From Tubulanus polymorphus (taxonomy: Eukaryota > Animalia > Nemertea), in assembly GCF_964204645.1 (NCBI RefSeq), contig NC_134025.1:7626001-7690000 (forward strand): a DNA stretch of 64,000 nt, written 5' to 3'. The notes below the pieces were generated by a model that did not search any database, was not told where the DNA came from, and saw only the letters and a program-made list of their open reading frames with translations. Positions within the stretch are counted from its first letter, which is position 1; each line of letters begins with the position of its first letter. A program made the translations under genes and the position numbers. Shown piece by piece: positions 3,272 to 31,500 of the stretch.

Positions 3272-3368
3272 ATCCTCCCTCGGCAGGGATTCGTACCTGG
3301 TGGCATCACTTCTGTACCGTGGCAATCTCAGGATGCCATCAGGTTCGAATCCATGCCGGGGGAGGATG
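3272..3368. mobile_element. Short MITE with tRNA B-box-like inverted ends (copy 1)
   Basis: Arms 3272-3307 and 3332-3367 are reverse complements at 32/36 positions and contain GGTTCGAATCC. Flanks gtccatagt/ggccattgt look like a decayed 9-bp TSD. Homologous to 15048-15349. Confidence 0.7.
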
Positions 3369-6369: not shown

Positions 6370-6408
6370 GCGCACCTAGAGCGGCGCTGCGCGCCGCTCT
6401 AGGTGCGC
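6370..6408. repeat. Perfect 18-bp GC-rich hairpin
   Basis: GCGCACCTAGAGCGGCGC (6370-6387), TGC loop, GCGCCGCTCTAGGTGCGC (6391-6408). Confidence 0.9.
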
Positions 6409-6473
6409 TGCGCTACGCTGTCACTTCCTGGTTCCGCTGCGGAATTTAAACATTTAACTAAAAGATCCACAGG

Positions 6474-6569
6474 GACTTGAAAAAAGGATTTTGACCCCAG
6501 TATCCTAGGTACTATATATAAAAAGACAGTACCTAGGATACTGAGGTCAAAATCGTTTTGTGTCAAGTC
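6474..6569. repeat. Long inverted repeat with an AT-rich (TATATAAAA) loop
   Basis: GATTTTGACCcCAGTATCCTAGGTACT versus AGTACCTAGGATACTGaGGTCAAAATC (27 bp, 1 mismatch), extended outward by GACTTGA/TCAAGTC. Confidence 0.85.
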
Positions 6570-7322
6570 AGTGTAAAGATCTGCTCTGTCATGTTTTTCA
6601 CGTCACTTGTCTTATTCAACAAAATTGGCTAATTTTTTGCATGTCCTAATTTACTGCATGTTTAGGTCCTATCATTCAAAATCATCGATATCATCTCCAA
6701 AACCAAAGGGACGTTGAACCAGTCCAAAGTCTTTGAGAAATAGACACTGGCCCAAGTGTCTATTCGTAACTTTTGGAGCCTACCAACTTACCCCGGTATG
6801 GTATGTAGAGTAAATTACTGGGAGTTTTTCGGACGGGATTGTCTTACTTGTTTTGAGGGATGCTCAGATCCAGGGTTTCAACCTCTTTTCGGACCAGCCC
6901 TTTTGAAAATCTCACTACAAAAGATTCCACCCTACAAATGATCTCAGCATATGACAAAAGTCTGCAGCTTAGTGGTGTGTCGCGCCTGCCCCACTCAGTG
7001 CGATTGGACACTTTTCACAACGATAAAATGCCCTTGTCATATAAAGTGAACCCCCACCCCATTTTTCCCAGCCTGGATCTGCCCCTGGGATGCTTATATA
7101 GTCACATGTCACATTGCTTGGTTTTCACAAGCATTTCTTACTTACTTGCTGGACAGATAGGAGATATTTATTTTTTGCTGGAAACTGCTCGTGAGAGTGT
7201 GTACATCTGTTATTGTGAAATATGCTGTCTGGGTGATCATGCACATTAATTTTTTTCTTAATTGAGTTGGCCCCCGGGTTAAAGTTAATACCACAGTCTG
7301 GGCCTGTGTGTGTATCAGTAAT

Positions 7323-7614
7323 CATGGGCGTCGCTAGGGGGATTCGGTAGTTAAAACGAACCCCCTTTTTTTGAATTTTCAAACGTCGACGAACGTCGGC
7401 TCATGGTTTGCATTTGCTAAATTAGCAAAATAAAATCAATACATGCAAAGACAAAGTAAACGGGAACCAGTCTACCTATAAACGGGAACCAGTCTATCTA
7501 TCGGCCTCAGATTGCACCAGAACATGCCTGCTTGCACAAAATTTTCTGGGGAGGACACCCAGACCCCCTCTATTCCTAAAAATGAACTCCAAAAAAATCC
7601 TGGTGACGCCCATC
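7323..7614. mobile_element. MITE with ATGGGCGTCGCTAGG / CCTGGTGACGCCCAT terminal inverted repeats
   Basis: Imperfect ~15-bp TIRs and an internal tandem duplication (aaacgggaaccagtctac/t). TSD unclear. Confidence 0.6.
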
Positions 7615-9617
7615 ATAATAGACATTTATGTATTGTCCACGTTTTTATTAGCAGGGAAGATTGCTGTTTTCGTATTGAGTCGACCACCAGTGCCTCCTAG
7701 GGTTATAAGTAAATGGATTGGCAGATAATATGTTACCAGGTTATGATGATTCATGGCTGAACTGGCGAGCATAAAGAAGAAATGCTGTGAACAGTTATGA
7801 GTATTCATTATTACATATTTATACAAAATCACATAAAATTTTGATAATTGACATACATTTTTTTATCTACTTGCAGCATACTGACAGAAAACTACAAACA
7901 GAGAAACAGAGTGGGAACCAATAAGACTTATCACGCTGTTAACTCTTCTTCTGAACCGTATCTGAACCGTATCGAGTGATTATAAGACCGTTGGGTGGGA
8001 CTCCCTTTTGATGTGTTGATTCAACTAAAACAGTTAACCACGGTTAACTCGACACTTAGGGGATTGTGATAAAAGTGACGACTTATCCAGATGATCACTT
8101 ACATTTGGCAGATTTGATTATAAATACATATTAGAAATACAGATTGTGACTTGAGTATTTATGTTTCAAACATCACTTTGACTTATCATTATGAGCACTT
8201 AACCAAATTTGACTTTGGATTGACTTCCTTGTACATCTCTGGAGTTATAAACATAATGATTATCAAACTGTAATCTTGGTTGATGCTTTATAATGGCTGA
8301 TTAATTTGGGGACTGGTATGATAATGATGAACTTTTAATTAGTATCTGGTTAACGTTAAAATATGAGGTTATGTAGCTGGTAGATGTGTATATAGCAGTA
8401 TACAGCATGTATCATCCAACTGCCTTATTTCTATTTTTTTTTACAAGTGGCATGTATAGATTGAATATGTGATTGAAAAATGAAAATAAAGCTTGAATAG
8501 TAATAAAGTCTTTGTATGGAAATTTTCGTTTTATCTATCTGATTCCAATGTGGATTTTGTTTCTAAGGAAATGGAGATTGCAGGTGATCCCAGCCCTTCA
8601 CACATTCTATATTTATTACATTTGATCTCGCATAACAATTTTATACGACGGAATTTATCAAAATCAAACTACGAAGTTTCGGCTGTTGACTCATCGGCGA
8701 AAAATCCAGACCAGACTTGCAGGATATAGAGGCCATTTTCTCCCATACCGTATTAATTCGTTTACAGACCTACTTTAATCAATGCAGGAACTAGAGCTGC
8801 CAGTAGCCGATGCCTGAATGTGGCCCTGCTTTAAAATCATTGAATTTCCCATCTAACAATCTTCCATCTAACAATTTTAATAAAAAATGCACATTTTTAT
8901 TACATATATTAATAAATATTTGTCAAAAACATATTGTGTAATTTTTATCTAATTATGATTATTGACGTCAGGGGAATTTTTGTGAACTGAGTTCAGGTTT
9001 GAAATTTCGAAAAGATAAAAATTGTAGAGAATTTACTCAACCAAAAAGTTCAAAGAAACCTATGGCTGGCCCATCAAGTACCGTAAAATGCAACGTTTAC
9101 CAACACTTACTTGTCAGGATCACTGGGGATAAGGCCATAAGGGTTATCACTGTAAACATGGCAGAAAAGATTCATGCGTCTTTTAAATTAATCTGAAAAA
9201 AGCGCCTAGATCGTGATAAACCCCACTCCGTGATCGACATGAAGAAATGACAAGTTGTTTTTGGAGAAATAAAAAGATATTGCATTTGCAGCATATTGAA
9301 CATAAACAAATTGACAATTTTGATGGTTTTACGAGAGTGTTGGTTATTCAAATGAAATGGTCACTTGGAAATACAATGAAAGATCACCAAGTTTTTGGGA
9401 GTACCCTTTTCAAAGCGCTCTTTCGAATTGTGCACAGGCAAAACTAGGCGCTGGGAACCTCGATCCTGGCGACATGGTAGGGAGGTCAAGTAGAATTGTT
9501 GCTAAAAGGTGTTTTTATGATCTTTAGCAATGTGAAGACATTTCTAGCTATGGTATAAGCAGCAATTTGTTCTTTTTAGTGCACAATCATAAATGAAACG
9601 GATCCACCTGTACTATG

Positions 9618-9791
9618 CACAGGGGTTCGTATCAGAGTTGTAGGTAATGATAAAACGATAATCTGTTAATGCAATGTCTATAGTATATATAAAATAATAT
9701 AATATATAAAGTTATTTTATATATACTATAGACATTGCATTAACAGATTATCGTTTTTACATAATCTACAACTCTGATACGAACCCCTGTG
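9618..9791. mobile_element. Foldback MITE, hAT-type 8-bp TSD
   Basis: Near-perfect ~80-bp arms CACAGGGGTTCGTATCAGAGTTGTAG.../...CTACAACTCTGATACGAACCCCTGTG with a short AT loop. Flanks gtactatg (9610-9617) and gttctatg (9792-9799). Confidence 0.85.
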
Positions 9792-9851
9792 GTTCTATGG
9801 TTTGAATTTCAGATAATTGCTCGTAGATTCGTAGAAGTACGTGAATAATAT

Positions 9852-9996
9852 GAATAAATTGACCTTAAAATTGTATCTACTTGCACTCCAAATCAAAATG
9901 TAGGGGGTTACCTACTTTGGAGAATTGGGGTTTTTCACCGAGGGGACATTACCTATAGGGGATCTTTAACTAGGTGATTTTTTTTACCCCTAACCC
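9852..9996. mobile_element. Solo degenerate Mutator-type TIR copy
   Basis: Direct similarity to 12451-12593 (aataaattgaccttaaaattgtatcta...tacctacttt...aattgggg). Confidence 0.6.
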
Positions 9997-10208
9997 TTTT
10001 AATTAACTAGTGATTTAAAGAATTGTAGACTGAGTTTAGATAACCGAATTAGATACATCGATTCGTAATATCAATATATAGTGGCCGAGTAATTATTCGT
10101 TATCACCTGGTACGCTTTCCGTGATCATATTGTGTACGTACGTAATTGAAGGAATTACGGGGTCATCTAGATTTAATAAGGTTCAATGTATAATGGCTTG
10201 TAAGCTCT

Positions 10209-10876
10209 GGTTAGCGGTAAAAATCCCCAATTCTTCAGAGTAGGTAAAAATCCCCCTCCTTTTGAATGAAGTGATACAATTTGAGGTAAATTAATTCAGA
10301 TACACATATCCAATTTATTTATATTTTACCGTGGAAAACCATAAGGATATCACGAGCGTACAAACTATAGTATACACTAATTGCATTAAAACTTACAACA
10401 AATTAACAGTTCATTAATACCAAATTAGTACTTTAAGTTATAGCAGTTAATGAAAGGGTTCATCGCACATTTAAAATTTATCGCACTAGCTTGAATCTAA
10501 AGTATTTCAAATTAAAGGTTCATTATTTCTATTAACTCATGGCATCGCACAGCTGAAATACAAGTTAACACGATTTCACAGTTCAAAAATATACCATTTC
10601 AGTTCGAATTGTACGATATAAAGAATAATAAGTTCATTATTCTTATCAATTCTAACAATTTATCTTATTCTAAGAGTTAACTAATTCACCCCAACGAAAG
10701 ATTTCATTGCGCAGTTCAAACATATTTCAATCTCATTGCAAATGAATAAAATTTCAGAAACATTTTGCTTTGAAATGTTCTTGAACATCATTGAAAAGTG
10801 GGGAATTTTACCTACTTTGAATATTTGGGGATTTTTACCTAGAGAATTTTTACAGAGGGGGCTTTTAACTACAACC
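10209..10876. mobile_element. Non-autonomous Mutator (MULE) element
   Basis: Left end GGTTAGCGGTAAAAATCCCC... is inverted relative to right end ...GGGGATTTTTACCT...ACAACC. 9-bp TSD gtaagctct (10200-10208) / gttagctct (10877-10885). Confidence 0.75.
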
Positions 10877-10977
10877 GTTAGCTCTTTGCCTATGCTTACT
10901 TTGAATTACGACAAATTTAAATCGAACTGTTTTCCGCTTGCTGCTTTCAAGTTTTTAATTCCTCACCAATATCCTTT

Positions 10978-11936
10978 GTGAACTTTGCGATGGCACCACC
11001 GCTTTTTTCTCAGGTGTATGTCATCCATGCTCCTTTGGTTGACAATATAACAGTTCCTTTAGTGTACACATTCTTACAGCGGAAGTCAGAAGGTACATAC
11101 GAGGATTTGTTCAATGCCATCAGTGAAAATGTCGATGGTATTGATCCCGATACAGTTATAGTGGACTTTGAGATGTTCATCACGCGTTAAGAGCTGTCTT
11201 CGGCGATGCACTGCAGATTCAGGGTTGTTTTTATCACCTAAGACAATCAACCTGGCGCAAGATACAAGAGCTCGGGATGGCAAATCGGTAAGAAAATGAC
11301 CTTTTTTTAATTTTTAAAATAATTGAATGATTTTGTACAAATTGTTGTTGACTCATTTACTCTTATGTATTCAGGTATCAGAATGAGGACGATTTCAAGT
11401 TATTCTGTGGGCTTGATGGTTTGGCATTTCTTCCCACTGCGGATGTTGTGGCGGGAATGCAACATCTACGAGATGTTGCCCCAGATGGTTGTGATCCTCT
11501 TATTAACTACTTCGATGCGACATATGTTAATGGAACATATAGGGAAAGAAGAATCGGAGAAGAGAATCGACACATAATACGGAGAATTGCTCCGAGATTC
11601 GCACCCGAGAGATGGAACGTAAATCGAGCAACTTTAAACTCTGACCCCAAAACTAATAATGTTTCAGACGGATGGAACAACAGATTCCGCAATTTGATTG
11701 GGCACAAACACCCTTCTATATGGCGCGCCATCCGTACCATTCAAATGGAACAGAGTGTCACAAGCACCAAGATAATGGAAAACGCCATCGGTGGAGTTCC
11801 ACAACGACGGGTTAGCAACATCCATCGTCCGTTACACGAACGATTACAAATACTGTGTCGACAATACAATGATGGACATTTGAATATGGCCGATTTCCTG
11901 CGTGGTGTGGGTCATAACATTCCGCTTGGAAATTAG
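10978..11936 (+). pseudogene. Decayed Mutator (MULE) transposase, C-terminal part, with one intron (~11288-11374)
   Basis: MULE motifs PPLFSQVYVIH, PLVYTFL, IVDFE, GCFYHLRQSTWRKIQELG, LAFLP, YFDATY and TNNVSDGWNNRF...HPSIW. Frameshift after VDFEM, D in place of the usual catalytic E, and 5' truncation. Confidence 0.85.
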
Positions 11937-12450
11937 AATTGATAAACGTTAACTAAAGTAACTTTTAACTTGGCGTACTTTTTGAAAATAAAACTGAACT
12001 GTGCGATGATCTCTTTTTAACTTATATTTTGCGCGATGCAGTACTGTGCGATGTGATTTACAATGTGATGCGATTTTGTACATTAATTAACTTCTAATTT
12101 GTAATACTTTTTAAACTTCAAAATGTAATATCTTTTACCTATTTGATGAGCCATTTTTAACTTGTGATATATTATTTAAGCTGTGCATTATAAATAAACT
12201 TTTAATTTAGAGTGCTTTTTGAAAATTAAAATCATAATATGTTTGAACTGTGCGATTGTTTTCTTTTTAACTTATATTTTGTGCGATACAGTATTAATGA
12301 ACAACCAATTTGTAATTTTTAATGTGATGCGATTTTGTGAATTAATTAACTTCTAATTTTGTATTTTTCATTGAAATGCGATAACTGCTATACATGATAT
12401 TTCTATGTAACGCAATTATAAGGTAAATAATAAATAGAATATATTAATAC

Positions 12451-12593
12451 GAATAAATTGACCTTAAAATTGTATCTAATTTGGACTCCATTCAAAAGGT
12501 GGGGGATTTTTACCTACTTTGAATAATTGGGGATTTTTACCTGGGGGATTTTTACCTGGGGGATTTTTACCTAGGGGATTTTTACCTACAACC
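12451..12593. mobile_element. Right TIR of the MULE, with tandem GGGGATTTTTACCT sub-repeats
   Basis: Several tandem copies of the ~15-bp motif ending in ACAACC. Same terminus family as 10209-10876. Confidence 0.75.
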
Positions 12594-14730
12594 GTTTATT
12601 CATATTCAAAATTATAACAACAAAAACATAATTTTAAGCCAGTGCTTTCAACGAAACATTTGATTCGAATAACTAACAAACTAGTGTATCAAATCTCCAT
12701 GCACTATTCAGTTATATGTTAATTTGATATTTCATGTATAAATTACAAAAAAACTAGCTCATTGTGGGTATTCTTTCGAATATACATACAACGTGCATAG
12801 ATATTTTCTATCTCCTACCCCTATAAGCGTAGCTAGGGCAATCTTTGAAAATTGTGAAATTTAAGTTATTCACTTATCCCTAACAAATCGCACAGCTTTT
12901 CCTCGAATTTCTAGATGATTATTCCTAGTGGCGATGCTCTTGAAACGATAGTTCTTTTGGCAGTCTATACACCATGTTTCATTTGCTTATTGCCAAGTTC
13001 CAGATCCAGAACGTATTTTTTTACAACAAACATAGAGAGAACTTAATTGACAGGAATCGTATCTAGGAATTGCGACGATCTGTATGCAATCTTCTTTGCT
13101 CGTCAGCAACGTACGTAGCCTTGTTACAAAGAATGGCATAAAAACAATTGAAACCAAACTTAATTAATACAAAATACCTTTATTTATGTCATTCATAAAT
13201 GCACTACAAATGATTCGTCTAGAAAATATAAGTAGTGTAATTCAAAAAATAACTAAATTGCTATGCATACTGGAAAGACGATCGTACTTGTGAAACGTAG
13301 CATGTATAGTGTGAGCATATTACAAATATTTAGCAACACTTAATTTCACATATATTCTTTATTGTAAATGCATGTATCAATCTGATAATATCAGTTTTTC
13401 ATTGATGCGAAGTTTAGATGGCAGACGGAAAGGCAGACTTTATTTTACTTTGATTATTTATCGGCAAACACGTTGTTTTGTCTCAATTTTCAGGAAAATC
13501 AGTCGAATTAAAACTGTGAATTACTGTGAGCACCTGTGTGTCTACCATCTTGCTCAATTGATATTTATCACTATTATCATTAAACAAACTTATCAATTAT
13601 CAATATTATAAAATCTGGCGGTTTGACGATACACTCAAACAAGGTAGTAATAGCGTGCAGTAATCGACGAGTAATAGCGATTGATTGCACGAATAGTTTG
13701 TATTTAATTAAATATTAGGCCATCTGACACCAGCTAGCCCAAGGGTAGATATATAGTCGCAGTGACTCAGAAAGTTATTCAGATTTTAAAACTCTCGATA
13801 CATATACACATTAATTTTATATATATTACTCTTTCTATTCGCTGATATTTACAGGTAAGTATTTTAATCTATTTCATTTAGCCAAATTTAGTGTAAACAT
13901 TTGACTAGGCCCAAGTTTTCATACTACGCATATCAAATATTTTGATTTCATGCATCTAAGCCTAAATGAATTAGACTTTTTATTGAGTTATATGATATGT
14001 AGACTAGTTAACTTCAGATCTATTCGAAAACAGAGCTAGATATGTAGTTATAAGTATGAACTGATTTAACATGTTATTGAGCATTTTGACATTTGATAAA
14101 AATAGGATAAAAGATATGGCCAGTACATCTATGTATGTGTCTGAATTATGCTCTATTATCATATAAAATATATCAGTAAACATACAAATGCATATTACAT
14201 CTAAAGGACCAAATTAATATAATAACCATATGTATAATCTCTTTTAAAATGAACATGTCAATTTTACAAGATTCTAATTTTACATCCCTCTGCGTTGACA
14301 TTAAAAAATATATACACAGGAATATTATATACATGTACCTCTTTCTATCCACTGATACTTAGTTCTCTCGAAGCTTATAAAAGACAAAACACAACGGACG
14401 TTTGTTTTGTTGATAAAATTTTCCTAACCCAATACCTACTCTACGTACATTATTTGAATGTTTTCGTTTTCACCAAACAATAAAAAAGAATATGAAAAAC
14501 ATCAGTGATATGTGATTGTCAGAACAGTTCAACATACTTAATATACCAATACAAAATTACTTTGTTTCAGTATCAATGAATTATAATATACAACGTACAT
14601 TGCCACGTATATGAAAAATATTTTGCTCTATGTAAAACACAAAGTCAATTACGAAAAGCATGGATGGAACATACACTTCAATCATGTAACAGTGGAACCT
14701 CGTAATAACGACTATAGATATGGCAATTGA

Positions 14731-17700
14731 TCAGCTTTCAGTGTCTTCATCACTTTCACTTCCCAAAAGAGCATCGGCCAAGCATTCTTCTGCTAGTTCA
14801 TGTGATGTTTGATGGACCTCCATATAGATCTTTATCAGTGTTTCTGGCAACAAAACTCGAAACACATAATCCATGTACTGAAAATATAATTCAAAAGTTT
14901 GGTGAGGTCCGGCTAACAAAGTGTTAAGAGACAACATGCACATTTGCTGAAATGCTTAGCAATCAGACAATTTCAATATTCAATGCCCCCTGTGAACAAA
15001 TTAAGGAATCAATGACATTAAAAATGCAATATATGCAGGTACATCTACATCCTCCCACAGCAGGGATTCGAACCCGATGGCATCGCTTCACTCAGCCACA
15101 CGGCACAAACCCCTGCCACACTTGACCGGGTGTGCAGCTTTGCCACGCGAAAACTTACGGCACCAATCAGATTGCTTGTTGTAGAATCGCGGAGGTAAAT
15201 TTCACGGAACAACTAAGAATGGGAAAACCCGGGATATCTGATTTGCTAATAATGTCATCATCTAAGCTGCCTGGTAGCTGCGCACTCGGTCTAGTGTGGC
15301 AGGGTTTTGTGCCAATGCCATCGGGTACGAACCCTGCCGGGGGAGGATGGAACATCTACTATTAAACAACCCCTGGTGAACATAGCGAGACAAGCATTGA
15401 AGCATATTTAAAACAACCCAAAATATTTTGTCTACACAGAAATGGCTCACTTAAGTGGGTTACATGCGCAATACTTGATATACTAGGGTAAATTACTTAA
15501 AGCTTTACCGGTATATACAAACCTTCGTATCAGTTGGGCAAAACATGTCCATTAATCCCTTTATTATTACATCACATTGCGCATCACTGTACAAAGTGAT
15601 TGGTACTTGCAAGGTCAAGTTACCTGAAATACAGTAAGCAAGGCACATAAACACTTGGTTACCAGGGTATTAGTTACTGGTTATTGTACTTAATTTTCAA
15701 CTTACGCCTGCTCTTTCCGCCATTCTTGTAGTCTTCATGGCGTCGACATTTAGTCTAAAAGTATATATATATAAAATGAGCATTACTGTTGACTACAAGT
15801 AATGAATACTGTGATACATATCAGTCATGGAAGACTAATATAATACCTTAGAGAGATAGTTTTGTACGACACCTGAACACAAAATTAATCGCTAATGACT
15901 GGTATATATGATTATTTTAAGAACACTACCTTTCCCTGGAAAATATTCCTCAAATAGCACTCATTCTGCATAACCAAATAAGTTAATTGCTTATCTTCTA
16001 GCTGCGAAACATCTCTGTAAGTAAAAATGATTCCTTCTTTAGCATTGACTGCTCTTAGACCATTCGGATTAAATACAATAAAGCTTGAGGCAGTTTGATA
16101 CCAGTGTCTAATATCAAAATAATTTTGCTTTACCACTAATGTCAACCCCTGGTATACTGCGCCCACATCAGTGCAGAACGATTTTGGCGGTATAGAGAGT
16201 ATGACACTATAGAGAGTATGGCGGTATATCGGAGGTGTTTTGAGATGTACATGGAGAAAACCTGGCAGTAGGCGGGGAGGGCGGGATATCGGGGTGGACT
16301 GTACATTCATCATGACTACTCACTTCACTGTCTTAATAAGAGTCATCATTCCTTCCACGCCCTGCTTGTGAGCGTTGCTGTCACCCTGATCAGAGCTGAA
16401 ATATTCAGGAATGAGATATTGGTATGAATTAACGTGTGGAAATTGCAAACCATTACAGTTATAGTTTATAGTATGGCTTACCTGTGACTAGCTTTAATCT
16501 TATCAGATATTTGTTGCGCACATTGATCAATATGATGAGTGTCTGCATTCAACTGGAATGTTAAAGAAAAACGATACAATTAATGTGATCACACAGGGGT
16601 TTTATGGATATTACATGATTATTTCACTACATACATAGCATAAAAGCATAGTGTAGCAGAATTAGAAAAATACACTAAGACTAGGGGTGCAGGCCCACTT
16701 TGCCCACTTGGGAGCTGGTTTGAAGTGCTTAACTATCAACTGTCTACCGCAGCATCTGTAAAACTTCCTTAAATAACTGGATTCTGTCTACGGACCGACA
16801 AACTGAACCTTCATAGCCCGCTGGGACTAGTTGGCTAAAAAGCAATGACACAATACCTAGACCGTAAACTGATCACGGGATAATCAAAGAATATGATATA
16901 TGATTTGTTAAGATATCAATAGTGTACTGGTCCATGTGTCTTCCAGACACACAGACACATACGCTAAAGCACCTGCAGAGATTAAAGTAAATACATGTGT
17001 TTCACATTGATAGCGTGTTATAAAAGGCAGAATATGTGCACATACACCAAGATGTAAATATATATATATACCCTTTGACAAATAATACCAACTGTTATTT
17101 TCGAATTTATTTAGACCACTCACATTAAATTAAAAGGTGTGAAAATCAAAACAGAAACCATGTGCATGCGTCACTTGTATACACATGATTTGGTGTGAGC
17201 CAAAAAATACTTACGAATTAGCATCTTAAACTGAAAAATTATGGCAAAGTTTAGCCTCCTATTATGTATATTCATTAACACAACAATTCAAGTCCTTAAA
17301 TAGACCTGGTACTCTAAATGAAGATTTCAAATGAAAAGATCCGATAGGATTGATTTGACAGAATTCACAAAAAAATGCTCTACCTCACCAACAACGCGAT
17401 CCATGATGTGCCTGGTTTCAGTAGAAATGGTTTCATCACCCCTAAAATGGAAAACCATTCTCAATTAAATACACTTTCATAGTTGTATATACCATTAAAT
17501 CCATCATATAAGCCATCATAAAATCTAACTATATTACCAGTATATTGAGAACGTGTTATAAAAGACAGAATATGTGCAGATACACCATATATATATATAT
17601 ATAATTCTCACCACTCACTTGAGATAAATTTCAGATAAATTTCATCTATCTACAAATCAATCAATCGGATGATTACTTACAGGATATTGTGAAGAGCACA

Positions 17701-20280
17701 CTTTTTTCCTGCACTCTTGCAGCAGTCTCTGTGCATATAGTTTTCACACTTCGGTGCCCTTGTCTTCTTGCACTTGGAAACACACATACAATATCTATTT
17801 AGAGGAGCTGTCATAGAATAAAACAACATCATTCATCAGTAATTACAGTAAAACCTCTTTTATGCAAGTGTGAATAATTCTAATGAATCAGTGCACTTTT
17901 GGAAACAGTTAATTCCGTTAGTACTTACATTTAGTTCCTAAAAGCTTCTTTTGCTTCATCCTTGTCAGGGATGTCAGCATACTAATATCCACCCACAACA
18001 GAGAATCTTTGACCAGGACTTGGTACTTTCTTCCCATTTTACCGACCTTTAGGATGACTCCTTTATGGCACTTTGGCCCAGTCTTACTATAAAGTTTTGT
18101 CTTTTTCATTGCTGTTGCCTGATAATGATAAACTGATTTAGAACTCATTGCACGTACTAGGGGAAGCAGATTTTTTGGAAGTTTGTAAAATATAGGGAGG
18201 GGGTTGAAAATTGGTAAATTCTTTAATAATTGTACATAAAATGTAACTAGAGCTACACTATGAAGGCTCTATAAATATAGCTGTGGCGGCTATCTTGGAT
18301 AATCTACACGAGTAAAAACAATACAGCACATCTTCCATCCATTATTCACCTACCATGTAATCAGAAAATTGGTTCAAAACAGAAGTAGACTTTAGAGCAG
18401 GAGCATTCTCTTCCTGACAGATGGCAATACCCCTAAGCCAGTAATGTTTATTGAATACACAATGTGTATAAATGGAAGATAAAAGCATTTCAAGCTTTAT
18501 TTCCACACTGGATGAAAGAATGCAGATTTAACAAGTACTTACATTCACCAAAACACGGTGTCCAGGTTCATACTGGGAACAAGGGTATCTATTCTTATGT
18601 CCCTTGACCATTGCAGCATTATATACAGTTGAAAGTGCTTCAGCTGCTTTTCGCTTTGAAGCGGATTCATTCTCCCAGGCAGTGAGCTTGAAATTTTAAA
18701 GTACAAAAGTTTCATGTGTTATATAACACATCATCAACATGTATTATTACTAGTCACATCTGAAGTAGAGTAAAGCCTCTGTATAGTGAACGCCATCGGG
18801 ACCAAGCAAAGTGTTCACTATGGGGAGGGTTAGGTAATGATGTGACATGGGACGACACCAGGTATGTTCCTATGAATCCACAACTACACAGCCAAACACT
18901 AAATTGATCTAAATCATGACTGCAATACACTTTCATTCAAGTAGGATAACTTATCGCATCAATTATCCAAGTAGTTTAGAGAGATAGTTTGGTACAACAC
19001 CTGAGCAGAATGTGTGATCGAAGTGACTAAATAGCCAGGTTGGCACATACCATAACGGACCATCTCTACTAGAAAAAGTGCTCACTGTCCACTATAGGTA
19101 GGTCATGATCTTGATGTAATACTGCCTCTATGACTGTGTTAACGCATAAGTACTGATGCATGTATTTTAGGTTTTGGGACCACACATAGGGTGTTCATTA
19201 TAGGAGGTGTTCACTATAGGGAGGTATTCATGCAAGGGGTTTTACTGTATTCACATTTGAAGAAGCCACATCTGAAGTATTTTCTTCATCTACGGAGTCT
19301 GCTTTCGTCATCTGACCATTTTGAAGGCCTTCACCTTGATTGTGCTTCCTGGCAAAAAATACTTCGAAAGGAGTCATCTTATCGGCTGAAAAAGAAAATT
19401 AGTATTTTATTTTCATAGCAGATGAATTGATAGGAAAAGCCTGGTTAAACCAGACATACGTAACGAATACCCTTCGGCCAGTGAGTGAGTCATGTTCAGA
19501 TCACAAAATTGTAATAGGGTACATATTCCTGACAAGTTTCATACACATACAAAAATCATTAAAAAGTGTAGATTATAGAGCAAGAACGAGTTCCATAATG
19601 CCTATTTCACATCACCCTGCCCAGATGGAGACAGGTGATGACAATACCGCATGAAGCTTATTGCCAAGGGGTATATCTATCTTTGGACCCCTAAAATTTG
19701 AAAAGGTACAATACACCCGGTTCCAGCGCGGTAGATATTAAGGTGTAGTATCTTCTATACTGCAAATTTGCAGTTTAGAAATAACAGAGGAGTAGGGCTA
19801 TTATTATGATACCTAGGATAACAATAAGGTTTCTAACAAAGGTAGGCAGAATACCCTAATTACATACAAAATGCTTTATGTAATCGTTGATTCATAATTC
19901 TCTGGAGCTCAGGAATGTGCGCAACCCAATTTGTCTCATCATCTCTCCCGAGTAGGTACCGAAGCATCTTCTTCCAGCTCCCATGTGATCTTTCGGACTG
20001 TAAAGAACGGTAAAAACATTGTTAAATTTGTAATACAAAAACTACTTCCCAATTTTTTCAATCAAAATATAATCATTACTTTTCCTTGTGATTGGGGATG
20101 CCTAGGCGAACCAAATATATGCTTTATTTTTGCAGTCTTCAAAAATGAATCAAACTCTCCTTTGAATTCCGTTCCATTATCGGTCTGTACGTATTGCGGG
20201 TTGCCGAACTCACAGAATATATTTTTTGTCACTTCGGCCACCGTTTTCGATGTTTTGTTCTGAATTGGGCGTAACCAAAG
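14731..20280 (-). CDS. 5'-truncated 13-exon Ginger/KRBA2-like DDE integrase gene with an SHI-like zinc finger and a PWWP3A/MUM1-C-terminal-like domain (~501 aa recoverable)
   Basis: Exons 20280-20080, 19997-19868, 19385-19255, 18686-18543, 18118-17929, 17807-17681, 17441-17384, 16552-16482, 16395-16324, 16014-15930, 15754-15706, 15623-15523 and 14877-14731. All introns are GT-AG and phase-compatible, with no internal stop. Integrase motifs LWLRP, FGNPQYVQTDNGTEFKGEF, SPRHPQSQGK|SERSH and TPFEVFFAR. The middle exons (17441-16324) are supported by splice phase only. Confidence 0.8.
15048..15349. mobile_element. Longer MITE with tRNA-like inverted arms, inside the last intron of the integrase gene
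   Basis: CATCCTCCC...GGGATTCGAACCCGATGGCAT at the left and its inverse at the right, with arms of about 80-90 bp. 9-bp TSD gtacatcta (15039-15047) / gaacatcta (15350-15358). Confidence 0.8.
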
Positions 20281-23200
20281 GTGTACCCCTTAACGATTAA
20301 CCAAACCCTCATCACATTTGCCCGATGAGCCTTGGCCCCGGGACCCCCCCTAACAGGTAAATGGACTCCTGGTGGCTTTACCTGTGGTCCGATTGGTGCT
20401 AAATTTAACAAGCACCTGCAGGGTGTACCCCTTAACGATTAACCAAACCCTCATCACATTTGCCCGATGAGTCTTGGCCCCGGGCCCAGGGACCCCCCTA
20501 ACAGGTAAATGGACTCCTAGTGGCTTTACCTGTGGTCCGATTAGTGCTAAATTTAACAAGCACCTGCAGGGTGTACCCCTTAACGATTAACCAAACCCTC
20601 ATCACATTTGCCCGATGAGTCTTGGCCCCGGGCCCAGGGACCCCCCTAACAGGTAAATGGACTCCTAGTGGCTTTACCTGTGGTCCGATTAGTGCTAAAT
20701 TTAACAAGCACCTGCAGGGTGTACCCCTTAACGATTAACCAAACCCTCATCACATTTGCCCGATGAGTCTTGGCCCCGGGCCCAGGGACCCCCCTAACAG
20801 GTAAATGGACTCCTGGTGGCTTTACCTGTGGTTCGATTAGTGCTAAATTTAACAAGCACCTGCAGGGTGTACCCCTTAACGATTAACCAAACCCTCATCA
20901 CATTTGCCCGATGAGTCTTGGCCCCGAGCCCAGGGACCCCCCTAAATGGACTCCTAGTGGCTTTACCTGTGGTCCGATTAGTGCTAAATTTAACAAGCAC
21001 CTACACGGTGTACCCCTTAACGATTAACCAAACCCTCATCACATTTGCCCGATGAGTCTTGGCCCCGAGCCCAGGGACCCCCCTAACAGGTAAATGGACT
21101 CCTAGTGGCTTTACCTGTGGTCCGATTAGTGCTAAATTTAACAAGCACCTACACGGTGTACCCCTTAACGATTAACCAAACCCTCATCACATTTGCCCGA
21201 TGAGTCTTGGCCCCGAGCCCAGGGACCCCCCTAACAGGTAAATGGACTCCTAGTGGCTTTACCTGTGGTCCGATTAGTGCTAAATTCAACAGGCACCTGC
21301 ACGGTGTACCCCTTAACGATTAACCAAACCCTCATCACATTTGCCCGATGAGTCTTGGCCCCGAGCCCAGGGACCCCCCTAACAGGTAAATGGACTCCTA
21401 GTGGCTTTACCTGTGGTCCGATTAGTGCTAAATTTAACAAGCACCTACACGGTGTACCCCTTAACGATTAACCAAACCCTCATCACATTTGCCCGATGAG
21501 TCTTGGCCCCGAGCCCAGGGAACCCCCTAACAGGTAAATGGACTCCTAGTGGCTTTACCTGTGGTCCGATTGGTGCTAAATTTAACAGGCACCTGCAGGG
21601 TGTACCCCTTAACGATTAACCAAACCCTCATCACATTTGCCCGATGAGTCTTGGCCCCGAGCCCAGGGAACCCCCTAACAGGTAAATGGACTCCTAGTGG
21701 CTTTACCTGTGGTCCGATTGGTGCTAAATTTAACAGGCACCTGCACGGTGCACCCCTTAACGATTAACCAAACCCTCATCACATTTGCCCGATGAGTCTT
21801 GGCCCCGGGCCCAGGGACCCCCCTAACAGGTAAATGGACTCCTAGTGGCTTTACCTGTGGTCCGATTAGTGCTAAATTTAACAAGCACCTGCAGGGTGTA
21901 CCCCTTAACGATTAACCAAACCCTCATCACATTTGCCCGATGAGTCTTGGCCCCGGGCCCAGGGACCCCCCTAACAGGTAAATGGACTCCTAGTGGCTTT
22001 ACCTGTGGTCCGATTAGTGCTAAATTTAACAAGCACCTGCAGGGTGTACCCCTTAACGATTAACCAAACCCTCATCACATTTGCCCGATGAGTCTTGGCC
22101 CCGGGCCCAGGGACCCCCCTAACAGGTAAATGGACTCCTGGTGGCTTTACCTGTGGTTCGATTAGTGCTAAATTTAACAAGCACCTGCAGGGTGTACCCC
22201 TTAACGATTAACCAAACCCTCATCACATTTGCCCGATGAGTCTTGGCCCCGAGCCCAGGGACCCCCCTAAATGGACTCCTAGTGGCTTTACCTGTGGTCC
22301 GATTAGTGCTAAATTTAACAAGCACCTACACGGTGTACCCCTTAACGATTAACCAAACCCTCATCACATTTGCCCGATGAGTCTTGGCCCCGAGCCCAGG
22401 GACCCCCCTAACAGGTAAATGGACTCCTAGTGGCTTTACCTGTGGTCCGATTAGTGCTAAATTTAACAAGCACCTACACGGTGTACCCCTTAACGATTAA
22501 CCAAACCCTCATCACATTTGCCCGATGAGTCTTGGCCCCGAGCCCAGGGACCCCCCTAACAGGTAAATGGACTCCTAGTGGCTTTACCTGTGGTCCGATT
22601 AGTGCTAAATTCAACAGGCACCTGCACGGTGTACCCCTTAACGATTAACCAAACCCTCATCACATTTGCCCGATGAGTCTTGGCCCCGAGCCCAGGGACC
22701 CCCCTAACAGGTAAATGGACTCCTAGTGGCTTTACCTGTGGTCCGATTAGTGCTAAATTTAACAAGCACCTACACGGTGTACCCCTTAACGATTAACCAA
22801 ACCCTCATCACATTTGCCCGATGAGTCTTGGCCCCGAGCCCAGGGAACCCCCTAACAGGTAAATGGACTCCTAGTGGCTTTACCTGTGGTCCGATTGGTG
22901 CTAAATTTAACAGGCACCTGCAGGGTGTACCCCTTAACGATTAACCAAACCCTCATCACATTTGCCCGATGAGTCTTGGCCCCGAGCCCAGGGAACCCCC
23001 TAACAGGTAAATGGACTCCTAGTGGCTTTACCTGTGGTCCGATTGGTGCTAAATTTAACAGGCACCTGCACGGTGCACCCCTTAACGATTAACCAAACCC
23101 TCATCACATTTGCCCGATGAGTCTTGGCCCCGGGCCCAGGGACCCCCCTAACAGGTAAATGGACTCCTAGTGGCTTTACCTGTGGTCCGATTGGTGCTAA

Positions 23201-24400
23201 ATTTAACAGGCACCTGCAGGGTGTACCCCTTAACGATTAACCAAACCCTCATCACATTTGCCCGATGAGTCTTGGCCCCGAGCCCAGGGAACCCCCTAAC
23301 AGGTAAATGGACTCCTAGTGGCTTTACCTGTGGTCCGATTGGTGCTAAATTTAACAGGCACCTACACGGTGTACCCCTTAACGATTAACCAAACCCTCAT
23401 CACATTTGCCCGATGAGTCTTGGCCCCGAGCCCAGGGAACCCCCTAACAGGTAAATGGACTCCTAGTGGCTTTACCTGTGGTCCGATTGGTGCTAAATTT
23501 AACAGGCACCTGCACGGTGCACCCCTTAACGATTAACCAAACCCTCATCACATTTGCCCGATGAGTCTTGGCCCCGGGCCCAGGGACCCCCCTAACAGGT
23601 AAATGGACTCCTGGTGGCTTTACCTGTGGTCCGATTAGTGCTAAATTTAACAAGCACCTGCAGGGTGTACCCCTTAACGATTAACCAAACCCTCATCACA
23701 TTTGCCCGATGAGTCTTGGCCCCAGGCCCAGGGACCCCCCTAACAGGTAAATGGACTCCTGGTGGCTTTACCTGTGGTCCGATTAGTGCTAAATTTAACA
23801 AGCACCTGCAGGGTGTACCCCTTAACGATTAACCAAACCCTCATCACATTTGCCCGATGAGTCTTGGCCCCGGGCCCAGGGACCCCCCTAACAGGTAAAT
23901 GGACTCCTGGTGGCTTTACCTGTGGTCTGATTAGTGCTAAATTTAACAAGCACCTGCAGGGTGTACCCCTTAACGATTAACCAAACCCTCATCACATTTG
24001 CCCGATGAGTCTTGGCCCCGGGACCCCCCCCTAACAGGTAAATGGACTCCTGGTGGCTTTACCTGTGGTCCGATTAGTGCTAAATTTAACAAGCACCTGC
24101 AGGGTGTACCCCTTAACGATTAACCAAACCCTCATCACATTTGCCCGATGAGTCTTGGCCCTGGGCCCAGGGACCGCCCTAACAGGTAAATGGACTCCTG
24201 GTGGCTTTACCTGTGGTCCGATTGGTGCTACATTCAACAGGCACCTGCACGGTGCACCCCTTAACGATTAACCAAACCCTCATCACATTTGCCCGATGAG
24301 TCTTGGCCCCGGCCCCCCTAACAGGTAAATGGACTCCTGGTGGCTTTACAATACAACCCTGGGGACTATTCTTGGCCCCGAGTCCAGGGACCCCCTCTAA
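20281..24400. repeat. Tandem satellite-like array, 148-bp unit, ~28 copies, with a duplicated 9-unit (1325-bp) block
   Basis: TAACAGGTAAATGGACTCC recurs every 148 bp from ~20350 to ~24319. Diagnostic variants recur 1325 bp apart: GGTTCGATT at 20830 and 22155, and the 7-bp deletion at ~20942 and ~22267. Confidence 0.97.
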
Positions 24401-25249
24401 GACCCAAAGTGCCTTCATATTTGGCCTGATCAGCACCCAATTTTTTGGGGATATTTTGCTTAATCTTTTCAACACATACCTCAAATTTGGTCTTAATTAA
24501 ATACCACCCGTGAAACTGTGCAGTCTCAATATAGGCCTACCATCATTTTATATCCATTGATTTTTCACATGGCATTGAAGGATTGTCAAAAAGTCTTCAT
24601 TTTCTCATGTTGAAGAGAAAAGGTTTGAAATTCTTGAGATGTTTCCTGTTTCCATGCTTATAAACCATATTTTTGATGATTTGAGATTAATTTAAAACGT
24701 TGGGCACGTGAACAAATTGTTAAAATTGATTTAGGCATAGTTCATTAAGTATTCTCTGCTCTGATTCAGATTGAAAGAAATTGATTCAATGACGACTTTG
24801 CCTTGGTATCGGTACTATCAAATTAAGACCAAATTGATTTAGGGCTCCTATTAATTATGGCATGTTTCAAAGTTCAAGAGAATAAATCAATCAGTGGAAC
24901 CTTGCTAAAACCAACTGGGATAGGCCGAATATAGAATTTTGTCCAAATTAAGACAATTTGATTCATCCATGGCTTGTAGCCTAGGGCGCTGTAAGTACAT
25001 TCAATTCATGCAGCAAAGATTTCCGCATGATTTTGCGCGTTGTTACACAACCTCATTCGTCACGGAACTTTGATCCAGGTAAAACCTCCCTTCTGGATCC
25101 CCTAAATTCGAGCACTGTGGAAGCATAAAAATCTAGCTTGAAATTAAGGCCTAAGCTCATCCTATCATCATTTTTTGAGTGCATTTTTCTCGCATTTTTT
25201 CGATATTTACAGTTCGATTGGCAGCCATTACTCCTACTGATGAAAGGAA

Positions 25250-25289
25250 CGCCATCTATTGAATGAGCGATTGACCCGCCATCTACCGG
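25250..25289 (-). promoter_or_regulatory. Two tandem CTCF-like motifs upstream of THADA
   Basis: CGCCATCTATTG (25250-25261) and CGCCATCTACCGG (25277-25289) resemble the reverse complement of the CTCF core (CCNNNAGATGGCG). Motif match only. Confidence 0.35.
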
Positions 25290-25526
25290 TTCCTCGATTC
25301 AAGCGGTTCCCTGAATACTACTCCAACAAGTGTACGATATGAAATATAACCAGTGGCCCGCGAGTATGGATAACGGAGTGCGAATTTGCAAACACTATGT
25401 ATTGTCCACCCTTAAATCATTGGCGCGCAATTTCAAGGTCGCGAGGATCCGAAAATAAATTTAAATCAACTTTTGCATTTGAAATTTATTTATTTATACT
25501 CCAACCAAGACATACATTTCGAATAC

Positions 25527-28500
25527 ATGTACTTGATGGACGACGAAGTTTTAGACAAAATCGATGAGATAATATCGAATTCAAGGTAGAGCGAAAAGCT
25601 GACACTCATGTTGAAGTAGAACTAATAAGTCTAAAAGTAAAACTAAAGAACTGAAAGAACTAAAAAGACGAGACGTATTTATATTTCCTGTCTGCCTGCC
25701 TGCTAAAAAAAAATCTAATTAGTTTTCCTTCTTCTTTCAATGCAGAGGATCCAAACTTGTAAAACTTACAGCAAATGAGTTTAAAATTCTGGAAGGAGTT
25801 TGGATAACATTTCAAAAAGATGGAATATTTTATCATGAAGATGCATCCTTGTTAAATGCATCAGCAGGATGGATGAGGTTTTTAAAGCAACTCGTTGAAT
25901 TAGCTATTCTGTGTAGTTCTCACACCAAGGCTCTACACATATTAGAAAAGGTGATTTGATTTTTAATAGGCATACCTAATTGAATTGATGAAAGCATATT
26001 GGTTGAAATTGATATCTATCATCTTCTTGTACTGGAATTAATTTTAAATTATCAATACCTAGGCCTAGGCCCATATTAATTTGATGCAATTCTTTCAGAT
26101 TACCAGTAAATGCTCATCTCTAGACAGTGATGGTGTGATATTTGCTATCAAAGAAAATTTGATTCACACTAAAGAAATATTGAAATGTAAGAGCGATCTA
26201 TAAACAAATATTACAAGTTTAATTTCAAACCAGTCTCAGTTGCTAAAGCTGTAGGCCCTATTTCGTTTAATTCAATTTTGAGGCTAAGATAAAGTAAGGA
26301 CTGGTGTTGAAATGTGTATGTATCTTGTAGGGTCACCTATATTAGATGTCAGCAATACTTGGAGGACTGCTTTGAAATCTCATTTCCCTGGCTTTCTCAT
26401 CAAACTAGAGGAAGAGATGAATGGAGAAATGACTCGGTCTTGGGGAGAACAGCAAAGTCTTCTTACTTGTGTGAAGGTAGGATATCCACAATTTTTATTT
26501 AGAAATTTATTCCAGAGATTTTTACATATGATACTCATATCTTTTTGCAGCTATGTTTACAAGTTCTTAACTTCTACCAGAGTGAATTCAAGGAAATTAA
26601 CTTCAATCATGTAACTTCAAGTGAATTCGGTGCATGTTTCGCTAAACTTATGCAGTATCTTATTGATATTCTCTCTGATGCTGTAAGTTTTTCATTTGCA
26701 TTTAATAAAGAGAGATGCACACAAGAAAATAACGTTTATTGTAAGAAAGTATGTATACGTTTCAGGTTTATACTCCAGGAGATGTGCATCTGCTTGCTGG
26801 ATCTGCGGTGGGTCATTTTTTGAACACACTTCCAGTTGAACAAGGAATAAATTTCTATTTGAATTTCGATCATTCATTAGGTGAGAATTATACATGTGTC
26901 GTAATATATTGTAGAGAAACATAGGCAGCAGTAATCAAAGGAAAAAAAAATTTTCTTTTCAGGTAAATCGTCAAAGCTTTCATTTGATTTGATGATGCAG
27001 GGTATAACTTCATCAGAAGACACAGCAAATTTGCAATATAACAAAGTGTGCCGATTTGGTGAATTGTGTCTTATATATGGCACGCTTTCTTCAGCATCAT
27101 CAGATATACTTCTAAATGACATTCGCTCAGATATAAACACCATAACAGCATACAAGACGTGTATACTTACTGAAGCCTTTCCGAAGATTGTCAAGTTCTG
27201 TTACACAAAGCATGTTTACCATGCATTTCAAACTTTACTCTTATGGTTTAAAACAAATTTAAAATACCTTGATCTGATGCTGCAGAGGACTCACAATTTA
27301 TCAGATAAGGCACTAGAATGTACTAGAAAGATTTTTGGTGCTGATAGTCATTTTGTGCAGAACACTACTAAAGCAATTTGGAATCACTGGGACAGCTCCG
27401 TATCTGGTGTGCCTGAATTGACATCCCAAGTGTTCACATGCTTATTGGATATTCATAAGAAAGAAATGGATTCCTATTCAATGAGTTGTGATGAATTATT
27501 TGATCATTTGCTGGAAACTCTACTGCAGATGCCATGGCAAATTAAGGGCAAGCATCGCATGCTCATTTGTTTAGTAAAATATGTTGGTATCAAAAAGGTG
27601 AGGTCTTAATCAGAAAAATTTTAAATAGATACTTTGATTTTCGTTAAATCCTTGTTCTGATTAATACCAGTAATTTGTTTAGTTGCTGGTTCTCGTTGAA
27701 AATACTACCGTAATAAGAGATGCCATAATTAAAGGGCAAGCATTGTCTACTATGTTTGTTATTGAAGGTCTTGCTGATAGATCCAAATTTGCCTAAAGAA
27801 CTATTCAAATGCCAGGCTGTAAATTTCATGGCTTCAACATCTGCAGAACTGTACAAGGAACTTATAAAACTGCAAAGAAATACGGGCCATGTTTCTGAAT
27901 GGTCTGAGACATGGCTGGATGTCATAATCGAAACTTTGATTAGCAGAAACAGGTATTTCATTCATTTGCAAACATTTACTACATTGAAGTAGATTATACT
28001 GAAATTTTCTGTGATTATTTTTGAATTTCTAGTGTTCTTCGTCACAATTGTTCCCAGTTCTGCGTGAAGTATACATTAAAGGTTTTCCCTGAAGCTTTCG
28101 ACATACTTATTCAAACCATCATTCAGAGACGACTTGAAACTGGATCTAATGATTATTTGAAATTGCACTCCAGCTACCTCTATGCATGGGTGATAGTGAT
28201 GAAATTAGCAAGACAACAGCAAATCATTGCTCTTAATGTATGTGGACGTGGTTGACGATGGGTAATCATCTACCTTTTGCAAAGCCTTTTATTTCATAAG
28301 AATTAACTGATTATCAGAAATTCTATTTCAGGGTGAAGAACCTTTACGTGAAGCTCTTTATCATACTGATGATGATATAAGAGCTGATGCCTTCCTTTTG
28401 TTAACTGTGACAAAAAAAAAATCAGGTAACTGGTATACAAAGAAAGATACTACTGGTACTGCTATTATTACATGTATTCAAGCTTTATACACTATCCTGG

Positions 28501-31500
28501 AAGATTTTGATTTGGTTCTTATCCAATTTCAGAAAATTTGAGCTGCATTGAACGTAATCTGATCAAGGAGTTTTTAGCTATAAATCTCAATATTGATTCC
28601 CCTCAATTTCGTACAGCTTTGCTGTTTGGAATTAAAGCTATATGCATTCGAGTTAGGGATAGTAGTCTGTCCTTATGGAAGGCATTTGGCAAGACTTGTC
28701 AAGCGGATAAAACTCTGCAAGGAAAGATTGATGATAATTTAGGTTTGTTAAGTGATTAGAATTTCTAATACCGGTATTTGTGATATTTGTGAAATAAGGC
28801 CTATTGATCAAGATCTGGAGGATCAATGAACACTAACAACGAAATTGAAATTGTATGTCCAGATTTGAGGGTAGCCCAACATCCAATATATATCTATGGA
28901 TCATATATTATAGATTTTGTTGACTGGATCCTAAATCTATGTACATCGAACCTATATCCTGGTGCATCGTTTCAAAGGAAGTCAACTGTGATTGAAGTGA
29001 TGACGGCATTATATGACGCGTTCATTTCAAATGAGGCTACTGGTTCGTCAATGAATTTTCATGTTTCTCTCTTTGATATTTTACTTAAATAATGTCGAAG
29101 TGAAGGTAAAATTGACGATATTCATTACAGATTCTGTTATTTTGCTCATATCATACGCACAGAGCAAGGGTTGTCTTCTCTTCCATTCTCAGACATGTAT
29201 TAAAGCATTATTGGCTTGTACGCAAGATGATTCAAGTAGTGTAAGTCTTATAAACAAATTCAAAGAACAAAATGTATTACCCGTAACTATTATTAGATAA
29301 GTACGGGAGTATCTGTTCTTTCTGTAGATTCAAATAGCAACCTGTAAATTGCTGCGGTCTACTTTCCCATGGCCAATACAGTGGACATCAATTGACCCTG
29401 AGTTGTTCGCAACACTATTACTTAGACAATGCTTGACGCTCTGTTCGAGTCCCAGACAACAGGATGGTTCGTGTGGTGCTCAACTTTTTAACATGCTAGT
29501 ATCGATGTAAGTATATTCTTAGGTAGTTACTATCCATAATCAAATTCCAGGATATGACTCAGTTTCCATCTTTTTATAGGTATGTGATACAGTGTAAATG
29601 GCATTTCAAAACTGAAAATGATTTGGCCACAGTATCAATGGAAAAAAGTGGTTTCCCTTTGATAGAATCGGTTGAATTTCTTATTAATGAAATAGAAGTT
29701 TCCGTGCTGAGAGCAGAAGAAAATATTCAGTTAGCAGCTAGTACATCTCCGGGATATGGCTTAATACAATGTCTGCTGCAAACATTGAGACTAGTCAATG
29801 CAGAAATGTGTGAGAGTGGTTCTGTGGAGTGGATGAAGACTGTCGAAAAGATGCTGTCATTGTGTAGAACAGTCATTAATGATGTCCTATCTGTTTTAGG
29901 AGGTTGCGCTGAAGATAAAGGTCACTATTGTTACATAGTTATAAGCTTACTCCAGTATTTTAAGATTGAGATCATTAACCTTTTGAATGTACATTTTGTA
30001 TTCAGCCACTTCACCATCATTTGCAAAGATGGGATTATCAATTTTGACAGCCGCTAATCAATTTGATGAGGACATTGAAGATTCGACAATCCTCTCTGAA
30101 CACTATAAAAGGGTTCTCACTTGGTGTTGGCTTAACTTAAAGGTAACAGTATATCTGACAATACAATTGTATGTATTCGGGCTTGTATTTAAACATTTCA
30201 AACTTGGACTTATTTTCTAGGAATGCAGTTTACTATTAGGTCAAATAGTTGAGTCATTTGGAGTAGATGGGGTAATATTGTCAGAGAAGTCTATTATTCA
30301 GGACATAGCTGATTTATTTTATAAGATTCTAACTAAGTGCAGACACAGGGTATGTTTTACACCGTTTAACTATTCGATATTCCCGTTACACTGTAAACCG
30401 TACAAAGCCACATTGTCTTGTTTTGTTTCTTAAAGGGAGCAATTGAAAAGTGCAATAAAGGATTTTTGCAGTTTTGCTCGTGCTTAATTACATCAAAATG
30501 CCGAAGCATTCAGGAAATTCCCAAACAAATACTGCAAAAGGTAGATAAAATATTATACAATGAAATATAATACAAGTTTATTGACGATAAGATTTTACAA
30601 TTAATACAGAGAGGTAATACGTATATGAATGTATCTCTACTATACATTGTATGTAACTAGTAGATTAAGTACGTTTCTAATGACTCATTCAGGTGCTTTC
30701 TATGCTGACGACAGTATGCAAAACATCATCAATAACCCGCAGATCAGCTGGACTCCCTCTTCTAGTCACGAGTATAGTTGCAAGTGAACTGATAACAAAG
30801 CGTGTAAATAAATTTTTGTTTCATTAGAATTTTTTTTGATACGCTACTTGTATGCTTAGTATTTTCTCTACTGTTCTTCACGTCAGACGGTTTTGTTAAA
30901 TGAAGCTGTACAAACTTTGTTAGATGTTGGTTCAACTCCACTGCCCAATGATGAAGACCAGCGCATTGACTTGCCACAGGTTCATGCCATCAACATAATG
31001 AAGGCAATACTGAAGGAGTCAAGTTTGTCATCTGCTATTCAACCATTTCTCAGTGATTTGATGATTTTTTCAATCACAGGATTCAGTTCCGCTTCCTGGG
31101 CACTAAGGAACGCAGCCACACAATTATTTGGTAAGTAATATATGATGAAAAAAGTATTTGATTCGTTCACAAGAGTTACTGCAGAGATACACTTTCATCC
31201 CCATTCAAGGCACAGTATTGTCGAAAGTTCTTGGACAAAAGAGAATGAAGGATGAAACATCAATTTTCAACTCTTCATTGACATTGAATCAGTTCTTTGC
31301 TCAGTATCCTGATTTGAGACAGTTCATGTTTGGATTATTAAGAAGTTGTCATAGCACTGGTCGAATTCAACCAACTATATTTCCTATTCTGGCCATCCTT
31401 GCTAGGCTATCTCCAGGTGCTGATATTGATCTGACAGAGTTTAAGGTAAAGACTGCGTAAAATGTTTTAACACTGCATGTACTGCCATTGTTACTGTACT

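Follow-up and report, generated by a model that had tools for sequence, protein, structure and literature searches.

The 64,000-nucleotide window analysed here (Tubulanus polymorphus, NC_134025.1, positions 7,626,001 to 7,690,000 of the forward strand) carries on its minus strand an intron-rich gene with a retroviral-type integrase core, at 14731–20280. The best explanation of this gene, to which we give a probability of about 0.8, is that it represents the 3' portion of a transposase gene belonging to a 19-kb, Ginger2-related DNA transposon bounded by terminal inverted repeats (TIRs), and that the copy carries exons of likely host origin and, lacking the front of its integrase, is probably non-autonomous. 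The original prediction, made from the letters alone, had offered either a domesticated gene or a large, recently active Ginger-like element, and had overlooked where the element ends, the loss of 5' sequence next to the array and a USP exon described below. The second of its two proposals is borne out: the element has TIRs and is flanked by an exact duplication, nearly identical copies exist, and the right end is also seen next to a different flank. Domesticated genes of the GIN1/KRBA2/SCAND3 type are single copy and have neither TIRs nor a target-site duplication (TSD); domestication is not supported here, because the gene is multi-copy and transposon-bounded and lacks the first catalytic residue.

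The element spans 19,038 bp (6291–25328), with imperfect TGT...ACA TIRs and an exact 6-bp duplication on its flanks. Its boundaries are as follows.

6285–6290, plus strand: left TSD AGTGTA, from flank comparison
6291–6340, plus strand: left imperfect TIR, beginning TGT, with GGAAC at positions 19 and 36; 37/50 identical to the right end
25279–25328, minus strand: right imperfect TIR, read as TGT from the minus strand, with contig breaks at 25328/25329 and another flank in run X2
25329–25334, plus strand: right TSD AGTGTA, from flank comparison

The 30 bases of the right end find their best match in the window at 6291 (21 of 30; next best 18), a score that none of 200 shuffled 30-mers reaches, and GGAAC stands at positions 19 and 36 in both ends. 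AGTGTA occurs 11 times in 1–25000 and is directly followed by TGT just once, at the TIR match. A 4-bp TSD, as had been expected, was rejected since flanks of 4 and 5 bases do not match; the duplication found is 6 bp. Contigs of the sequencing runs X1, X2 and X3 all break at 25328/25329. One X2 contig runs from 25328 into another flank, which indicates a second insertion, and the X1 and X2 contigs arriving from the side of the neighbouring THADA-like gene go past 25329 by 24 and 18 unaligned letters, respectively, which would correspond to the empty site in samples without the insertion there.

Within these boundaries, 13 exons on the minus strand join across 12 GT-AG introns (82–831 bp) into 501 codons and a stop.

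20280–20080, 19997–19868, 19385–19255 and 18686–18543, minus strand: exons 1–4 of the spliced model
18118–17929, 17807–17681, 17441–17384, 16552–16482 and 16395–16324, minus strand: exons 5–9 of the spliced model
16014–15930, 15754–15706, 15623–15523 and 14877–14731, minus strand: exons 10–13 of the spliced model
20080–20280, minus strand: remnant of exon 1, truncated on its 5' side and encoding integrase core sequence that includes the second D (Pfam rve, E 1.3e-9)
19255–19997, minus strand: exons 2–3, catalytic E and end of the integrase core in the spliced model; in the expressed form, the exon 2 acceptor is the USP joining site
17929–18686, minus strand: exons 4–5, integrase C-terminal region, collinear with integrase relatives, its fold presumably SH3-like
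17681–17807, minus strand: exon 6, Cys/His finger, common to the relative P0004, with X4 joints on both sides
16482–17441, minus strand: exons 7–8, linker with alternative donors 17388 and 17383; an alternative exon, 7b, probably lies at 17230 (RefSeq P0008, P0030, P0033)
14731–16395, minus strand: exons 9–13, PWP3A/MUM1-C-like domain, likely host-captured (69% identity to P0009; PF20886, E 6.5e-5)
15048–15349, no strand assigned: miniature inverted-repeat transposable element (MITE)-like high-copy insertion in intron 12 (inverted repeat I4; depth peak and many loose ends)

All of the integrase motifs quoted in the original prediction are present, and the match of exon 1 to Pfam rve passes the cut-off. 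The joined model is collinear with P0004 over residues 1–306 (31%, E 1e-37, finger included) and likewise with the integrase protein P0003; in the gene calls P0001 and P0002 the similarity stops directly after QGK, a sign that an intron may interrupt these at the matching position. The exon 6 finger shares 17 of 37 residues with P0004 and has no match in a Pfam search, so that its earlier description as SHI-like, a presumed resemblance, is not upheld. For the MUM1-C-like domain a match was found (PF20886, PWP3A/B C-terminal, in P0008), with a score below the Pfam cut-off. Secondary insertions in the introns had been suspected, and high-copy ones do lie in introns 7, 9 and 12; the ends of the MITE-like insertion in intron 12 recur in a second copy at 3272–3369, outside the element.

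The predicted 501-codon frame is spliced at 8 of its 12 introns (see below) but is not a whole gene, since exon 1 has neither a start codon nor an acceptor. It directly abuts a tandem array.

20280–24349, no strand assigned: tandem array, 148-bp unit, 27.7 copies, 96% matches, adjoining exon 1 in place of the missing 5' coding part

Coding sequence was rejected as an explanation of the array, as all three minus frames of one unit contain stops. The N-terminal part of the relatives (~140–220 residues, with the first Asp) has no match in the window (tblastn, five relatives); with the first D and the N-terminus not in the window, the complete D-D-E triad is absent here. Other copies have exon 1 whole, as indicated by an X1 contig that matches 19592–20281 and continues with 435 other letters without the array, and by an X2 loose end at 20281 that reads, in frame, IDVFSRF ahead of LWLRP, the motif of the relatives. 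Deep X1 coverage of the array units and of 24350–25328 makes it likely that the family carries the array natively and that the sequence once lying between it and exon 1 has been lost here. We propose that the window copy may have arisen by an internal deletion that extended from within this family-borne array into exon 1, where a short CCT microhomology is found at the junction, and that it could move only in trans. That the junction is instead an assembly error and the locus intact appears highly improbable: the bridge from array to exon 1 is absent from the displayed contigs and the full-depth contigs go elsewhere, but X1 and X2 appear to lack the insertion here and so might well not contain the junction, the two ends and the TSD fit together, and the microhomology itself speaks against an error.

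Exon 13, used as a query, retrieved 22 proteins, and RefSeq models of T. polymorphus match the window exons at 98–100% on three different contigs: P0030 (387/387 identical, 32.1 Mb contig), which is possibly the window locus itself, P0008 (182/185 identical, 24.9 Mb contig) and P0033 (259/260 residues identical over exons 2–7, 111 kb contig). Two of the P0008 differences are run variants, at 16486 and 14784.

Run X4 was taken as RNA-like solely because contigs lacking introns occur in X4 alone. Its contigs skip 8 of the 12 introns exactly, at joints where X1–X3 have a depth of 0. Joints 7–8 and 8–9 are not among the X4 read joints displayed, nor is there an exon 1–2 joint in the contigs examined around these two exons. 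At the exon 2 acceptor, an X4 contig (depth 193) has 30 foreign letters joined exactly onto the exon, leaving a loose end at 19997, and their translation corresponds to the final residues of the USP part in P0033. This part matches PF00443 (E 1.6e-18) over the C-terminal half of the domain only (profile 123–254). Neither of the loose-end strings, on the USP side or on the IDVFSRF side, has a match in the window. The USP–exon 2 form, in which core exon 1 is replaced by the USP exon and which is without both core Asp residues, is an abundant spliced form, the spliced X4 contigs having depths of 120–316 vs ~5–10 for unspliced ones. P0033 is the one protein among 105 candidates in which USP and rve are fused, a count that carries little weight, and no close relative of its USP part was found besides itself. 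In the Atlas, the USP part resembles viral USP clusters, which is no more than a lead. Between 13000 and 14400, X4 has a depth of 170–280 with indels relative to the window, and this may be a long 3' untranslated region or a second transcript, from another copy.

Such an abundant form could also be taken for the product of a derivative locus, made of the USP exon and exons 2–7, that has been domesticated as a deubiquitinase–DNA-binding chimera, the window copy being its sibling. The depth of the spliced contigs, the presence of USP with exons 2–7 in RefSeq P0033 and the differences of the X4 transcript from the X1–X3 DNA contigs (e.g. a 10-nt insertion at 14630) all point that way. We nevertheless judge it very unlikely: an identity of 98–100% makes the copies too recent for a domestication that has become established, TIRs and a TSD bound the window copy, 5 of the 8 exonic variants displayed alter or end the protein, and the USP part stands without a close relative.

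The transcripts bear equally on how the integrase is connected to the captured exons. The 3' exons are spliced to one another, but the in-frame joint that would connect them to the integrase (donor 17383 to exon 8) is absent from all three RefSeq models. Two of the three (P0030, P0008) use donor 17388 with exon 8, whereupon the integrase frame ends after residue 333, and P0030 stays in frame only through an alternative exon 6 acceptor, which destroys the finger; in P0033, donor 17383 is used and a stop follows seven residues later. A single 501-residue fusion of integrase, finger and MUM1-C-like domain is thus unproven. Intact copies may still make the full fusion, with or without USP, the host domain then aiding targeting or repair in transposition. 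In its favour, exons 1–13 are open in frame with donor 17383, this donor is in use in P0033, the captured domain is still open in the window and in P0008 at ~30% divergence from its parent, and relatives carry an accessory OTU domain at the same position. We consider it possible but rather unlikely, given the missing joint, the termination of P0033 shortly after exon 7, an exon 10–11 joint that in X4 is a variant form with two stops in the model's frame as displayed, and an unspliced X4 contig of depth 61 over 16524–17223.

The stretch of the model from late exon 9 through exon 13 (residues 364–499) shares 69–70% identity with the C-terminus of the conspecific protein P0009 and 43–50% with proteins of molluscs, a brachiopod, an annelid, a hemichordate and a soft coral. 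In a 13-row tree the element domain is sister to P0009 (support 100/99). The host family (P0009, P0012, P0014–16, P0020, P0023–24 and P0026) has no rve match in the proteins scanned, and a profile of nine of the host proteins gave one match among 177,635 PDB sequences, the N-terminus of human SLX4IP (E 0.0076), on which value the SLX4IP orthology rests. Element and host family share the C-terminal PWP3A-C-like domain, whereas the SLX4IP-like N-terminus is not in the element. The simplest reading of these sequence relationships is that exons 9–13 were likely captured from the host SLX4IP-like gene. That the 3' exons might belong to a separate gene had been named as something that would speak against the original prediction, and this holds in part: they likely derive from such a gene and their in-frame fusion to the integrase is unproven, but they lie within the element and are spliced together. 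The captured domain was in none of the 113 fetched loci, and an Atlas search with it gave no usable match. In the P0009 family of invertebrate SLX4IP-like proteins, the conserved C-terminal PWP3A/MUM1-C-like domain lies outside the SLX4IP structure match, and we found no paper on it.

In a tree of the integrase core with 92 rows, from which loci with <105 aligned core residues were excluded, the window core falls in a clade of 13 rows (98/92), with OTU in P0003–5, L002, L003 and L006. This clade is sister (96/80) to one that contains the KRBA2/SCAND3-like L010 (rve + Znf_SCAND3) and is apart from the Gypsy rows bearing a reverse transcriptase (RT). Neither H2C2, in the relatives that cover its region, nor GPY/F was seen (alignment A4), Integrase_H2C2 gave no match in these relatives, and the H2C2 region is missing in the window copy; a C-terminal OTU or Ulp1 is absent from the model and from P0033. 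The rve+OTU proteins L002, L003, L006 and P0005 have a further conserved C-terminal domain with no Pfam match. L010:503–3084 is a compact KRBA2/SCAND3-like element; its TIRs contain TGT...ACA and its flanks are imperfect.

In the literature, the TSD is given as 4 bp for Ginger1 and 4–5 bp for Ginger2 (PMC2836005, PMC10045372), and the papers disagree in that PMC6839031 has 6 bp for Ginger2; 6 bp is published for Polinton and GingerRoot/IS3EU (PMC10045372, PMC6839031). With Ginger2/TDD and KRBA2/SCAND3 the element shares TGT termini, TIRs of ~50 bp and the lack of GPY/F and RT (PMC2836005, PMC3575427), its ends reading TGTCG on the left and TGTTG on the right, as in the TGTNR of Ginger2/TDD. 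It differs from Ginger2/TDD in its 6-bp TSD at one site vs 4–5 bp (PMC2836005, PMC10045372), in its size of 19 kb vs 2.7–6.7 kb, in that no H2C2 finger was seen in its relatives and in its captured host exons (PMC2836005). Ginger1 likewise has TGT ends, introns and a protease accessory domain (OTU in the relatives here, USP in the transcript), but its 4-bp CCGG/CCGT TSD and GPY/F are not found in the element, it has 0–4 introns vs 12, and the core of the element lies outside the Gypsy-side clade (PMC2836005). GingerRoot/IS3EU shares the 6-bp TSD, occasional TG..CA ends, a large size (up to 12.9 kb) (PMC6839031, PMC10045372) and the uptake of intron-containing host fragments, in many cases at the expense of the transposase (PMC6839031); its ends are mostly TA..TA with TIRs of 100–150 bp (PMC6839031, PMC10045372), unlike those here, and its DDE motifs look different in a by-eye comparison with the printed sequence only (PMC6839031). 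No polymerase (polymerase B included), ATPase or capsid/virion gene was seen among the element frames scanned. Polinton/Maverick elements have a size near 19 kb. They share with the element the 6-bp TSD and an integrase without HHCC (PMC10045372) but have AG rather than TGT termini (PMC6839031), and the element is intron-rich. It works like a Ginger2 transposon and its TSD, known from a single site, is not that of Ginger2; we have not filed it as a member, and for the clade with rve and OTU but no H2C2 the ends do not fit neatly into any of the published Ginger groups. The literature searched yielded no account of a lineage of this kind, though Repbase, subscription journals and supplements may hold one.

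Several points weigh against the reading of the gene as part of a Ginger2-related transposon. The TIRs are just 74% alike, the TSD is based on a single insertion, the left end is without read support, and TIRs were found around the gene in none of five close loci (L001, L002, L003, L006, L007). The X1 depth of ~100 inside vs 38.5 outside the element is a hint only, as depth is not copy number. Runs X1–X4 come from one study and the data type of X4 is unrecorded. Named references for Ginger2 and Polinton are absent from the tree, no intact copy is among the sequences read, and of the missing 5' part no more than 30 letters have been seen. The USP exon may be borne by the element or may be part of one chimeric locus.

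If the gene is the transposase of such an element, intact copies would encode a complete retroviral-type DDE integrase, which would bind the repeated GGAAC motifs in both ends, excise the element and insert it with a 6-bp stagger. Earlier, the family would have acquired the terminal exons of the SLX4IP-like host gene at the DNA level, in the manner of Pack-type elements. The abundant transcript, with the USP exon spliced to exon 2 and the core exon bypassed, would yield a transposase-dead product, and the captured exons may often be untranslated or out of frame. One might imagine a new lineage between the Ginger2 and Polinton integrases, with TGT ends, a 6-bp TSD, no HHCC and deubiquitinase passengers. 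Its nemertean family would have reached ~20 kb, exchanged OTU for a USP exon and captured the domain of a DNA-repair gene, and an abundant exon-skipped, integrase-dead USP–DNA-binding isoform would regulate the element's own transposition in the way of the P-element repressor; we regard this whole as unlikely.

The rest of the element holds no second gene by Pfam match (none under E 0.09 across 23 frames), and an Rfam search gave 0 matches. It contains a 174-bp near-perfect palindrome at 9618–9791 (87-nt arms, 92%) and the following insertion, with Mutator-like element (MULE)-like transposase fragments at 10921–11936.

9846–12585, plus strand: nested MULE-like element, boundaries approximate (repeats; PF10551, E 0.003, below cut-off)

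Outside the element, four further coding features were noted.

25527–34100, plus strand: THADA/TRM732-like intron-rich gene, ATG at 25527, ~200 bp beyond the element's right end; its promoter may therefore contain the insertion
39810–41483, plus strand: BTB-BACK-Kelch protein, single 557-aa frame
42786–43220, minus strand: ABC transporter ATPase exon
1416–2504, plus strand: open frame of 362 aa, zero Pfam matches

On the reading preferred here, three RefSeq genes annotated as uncharacterized in T. polymorphus are pieces of one transposon family. The element would then be an example from animals of host exons being copied by a very large Ginger-related transposon, behaviour that is on record for the plant GingerRoot and Pack-MULEs. 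OTU, Ulp1 and peptidase C19 domains have been noted on other transposases, and the proposal in the same paper (PMC2836005) that ubiquitin proteases serve transposition becomes testable, USP being a protease of a different class on the same scaffold.

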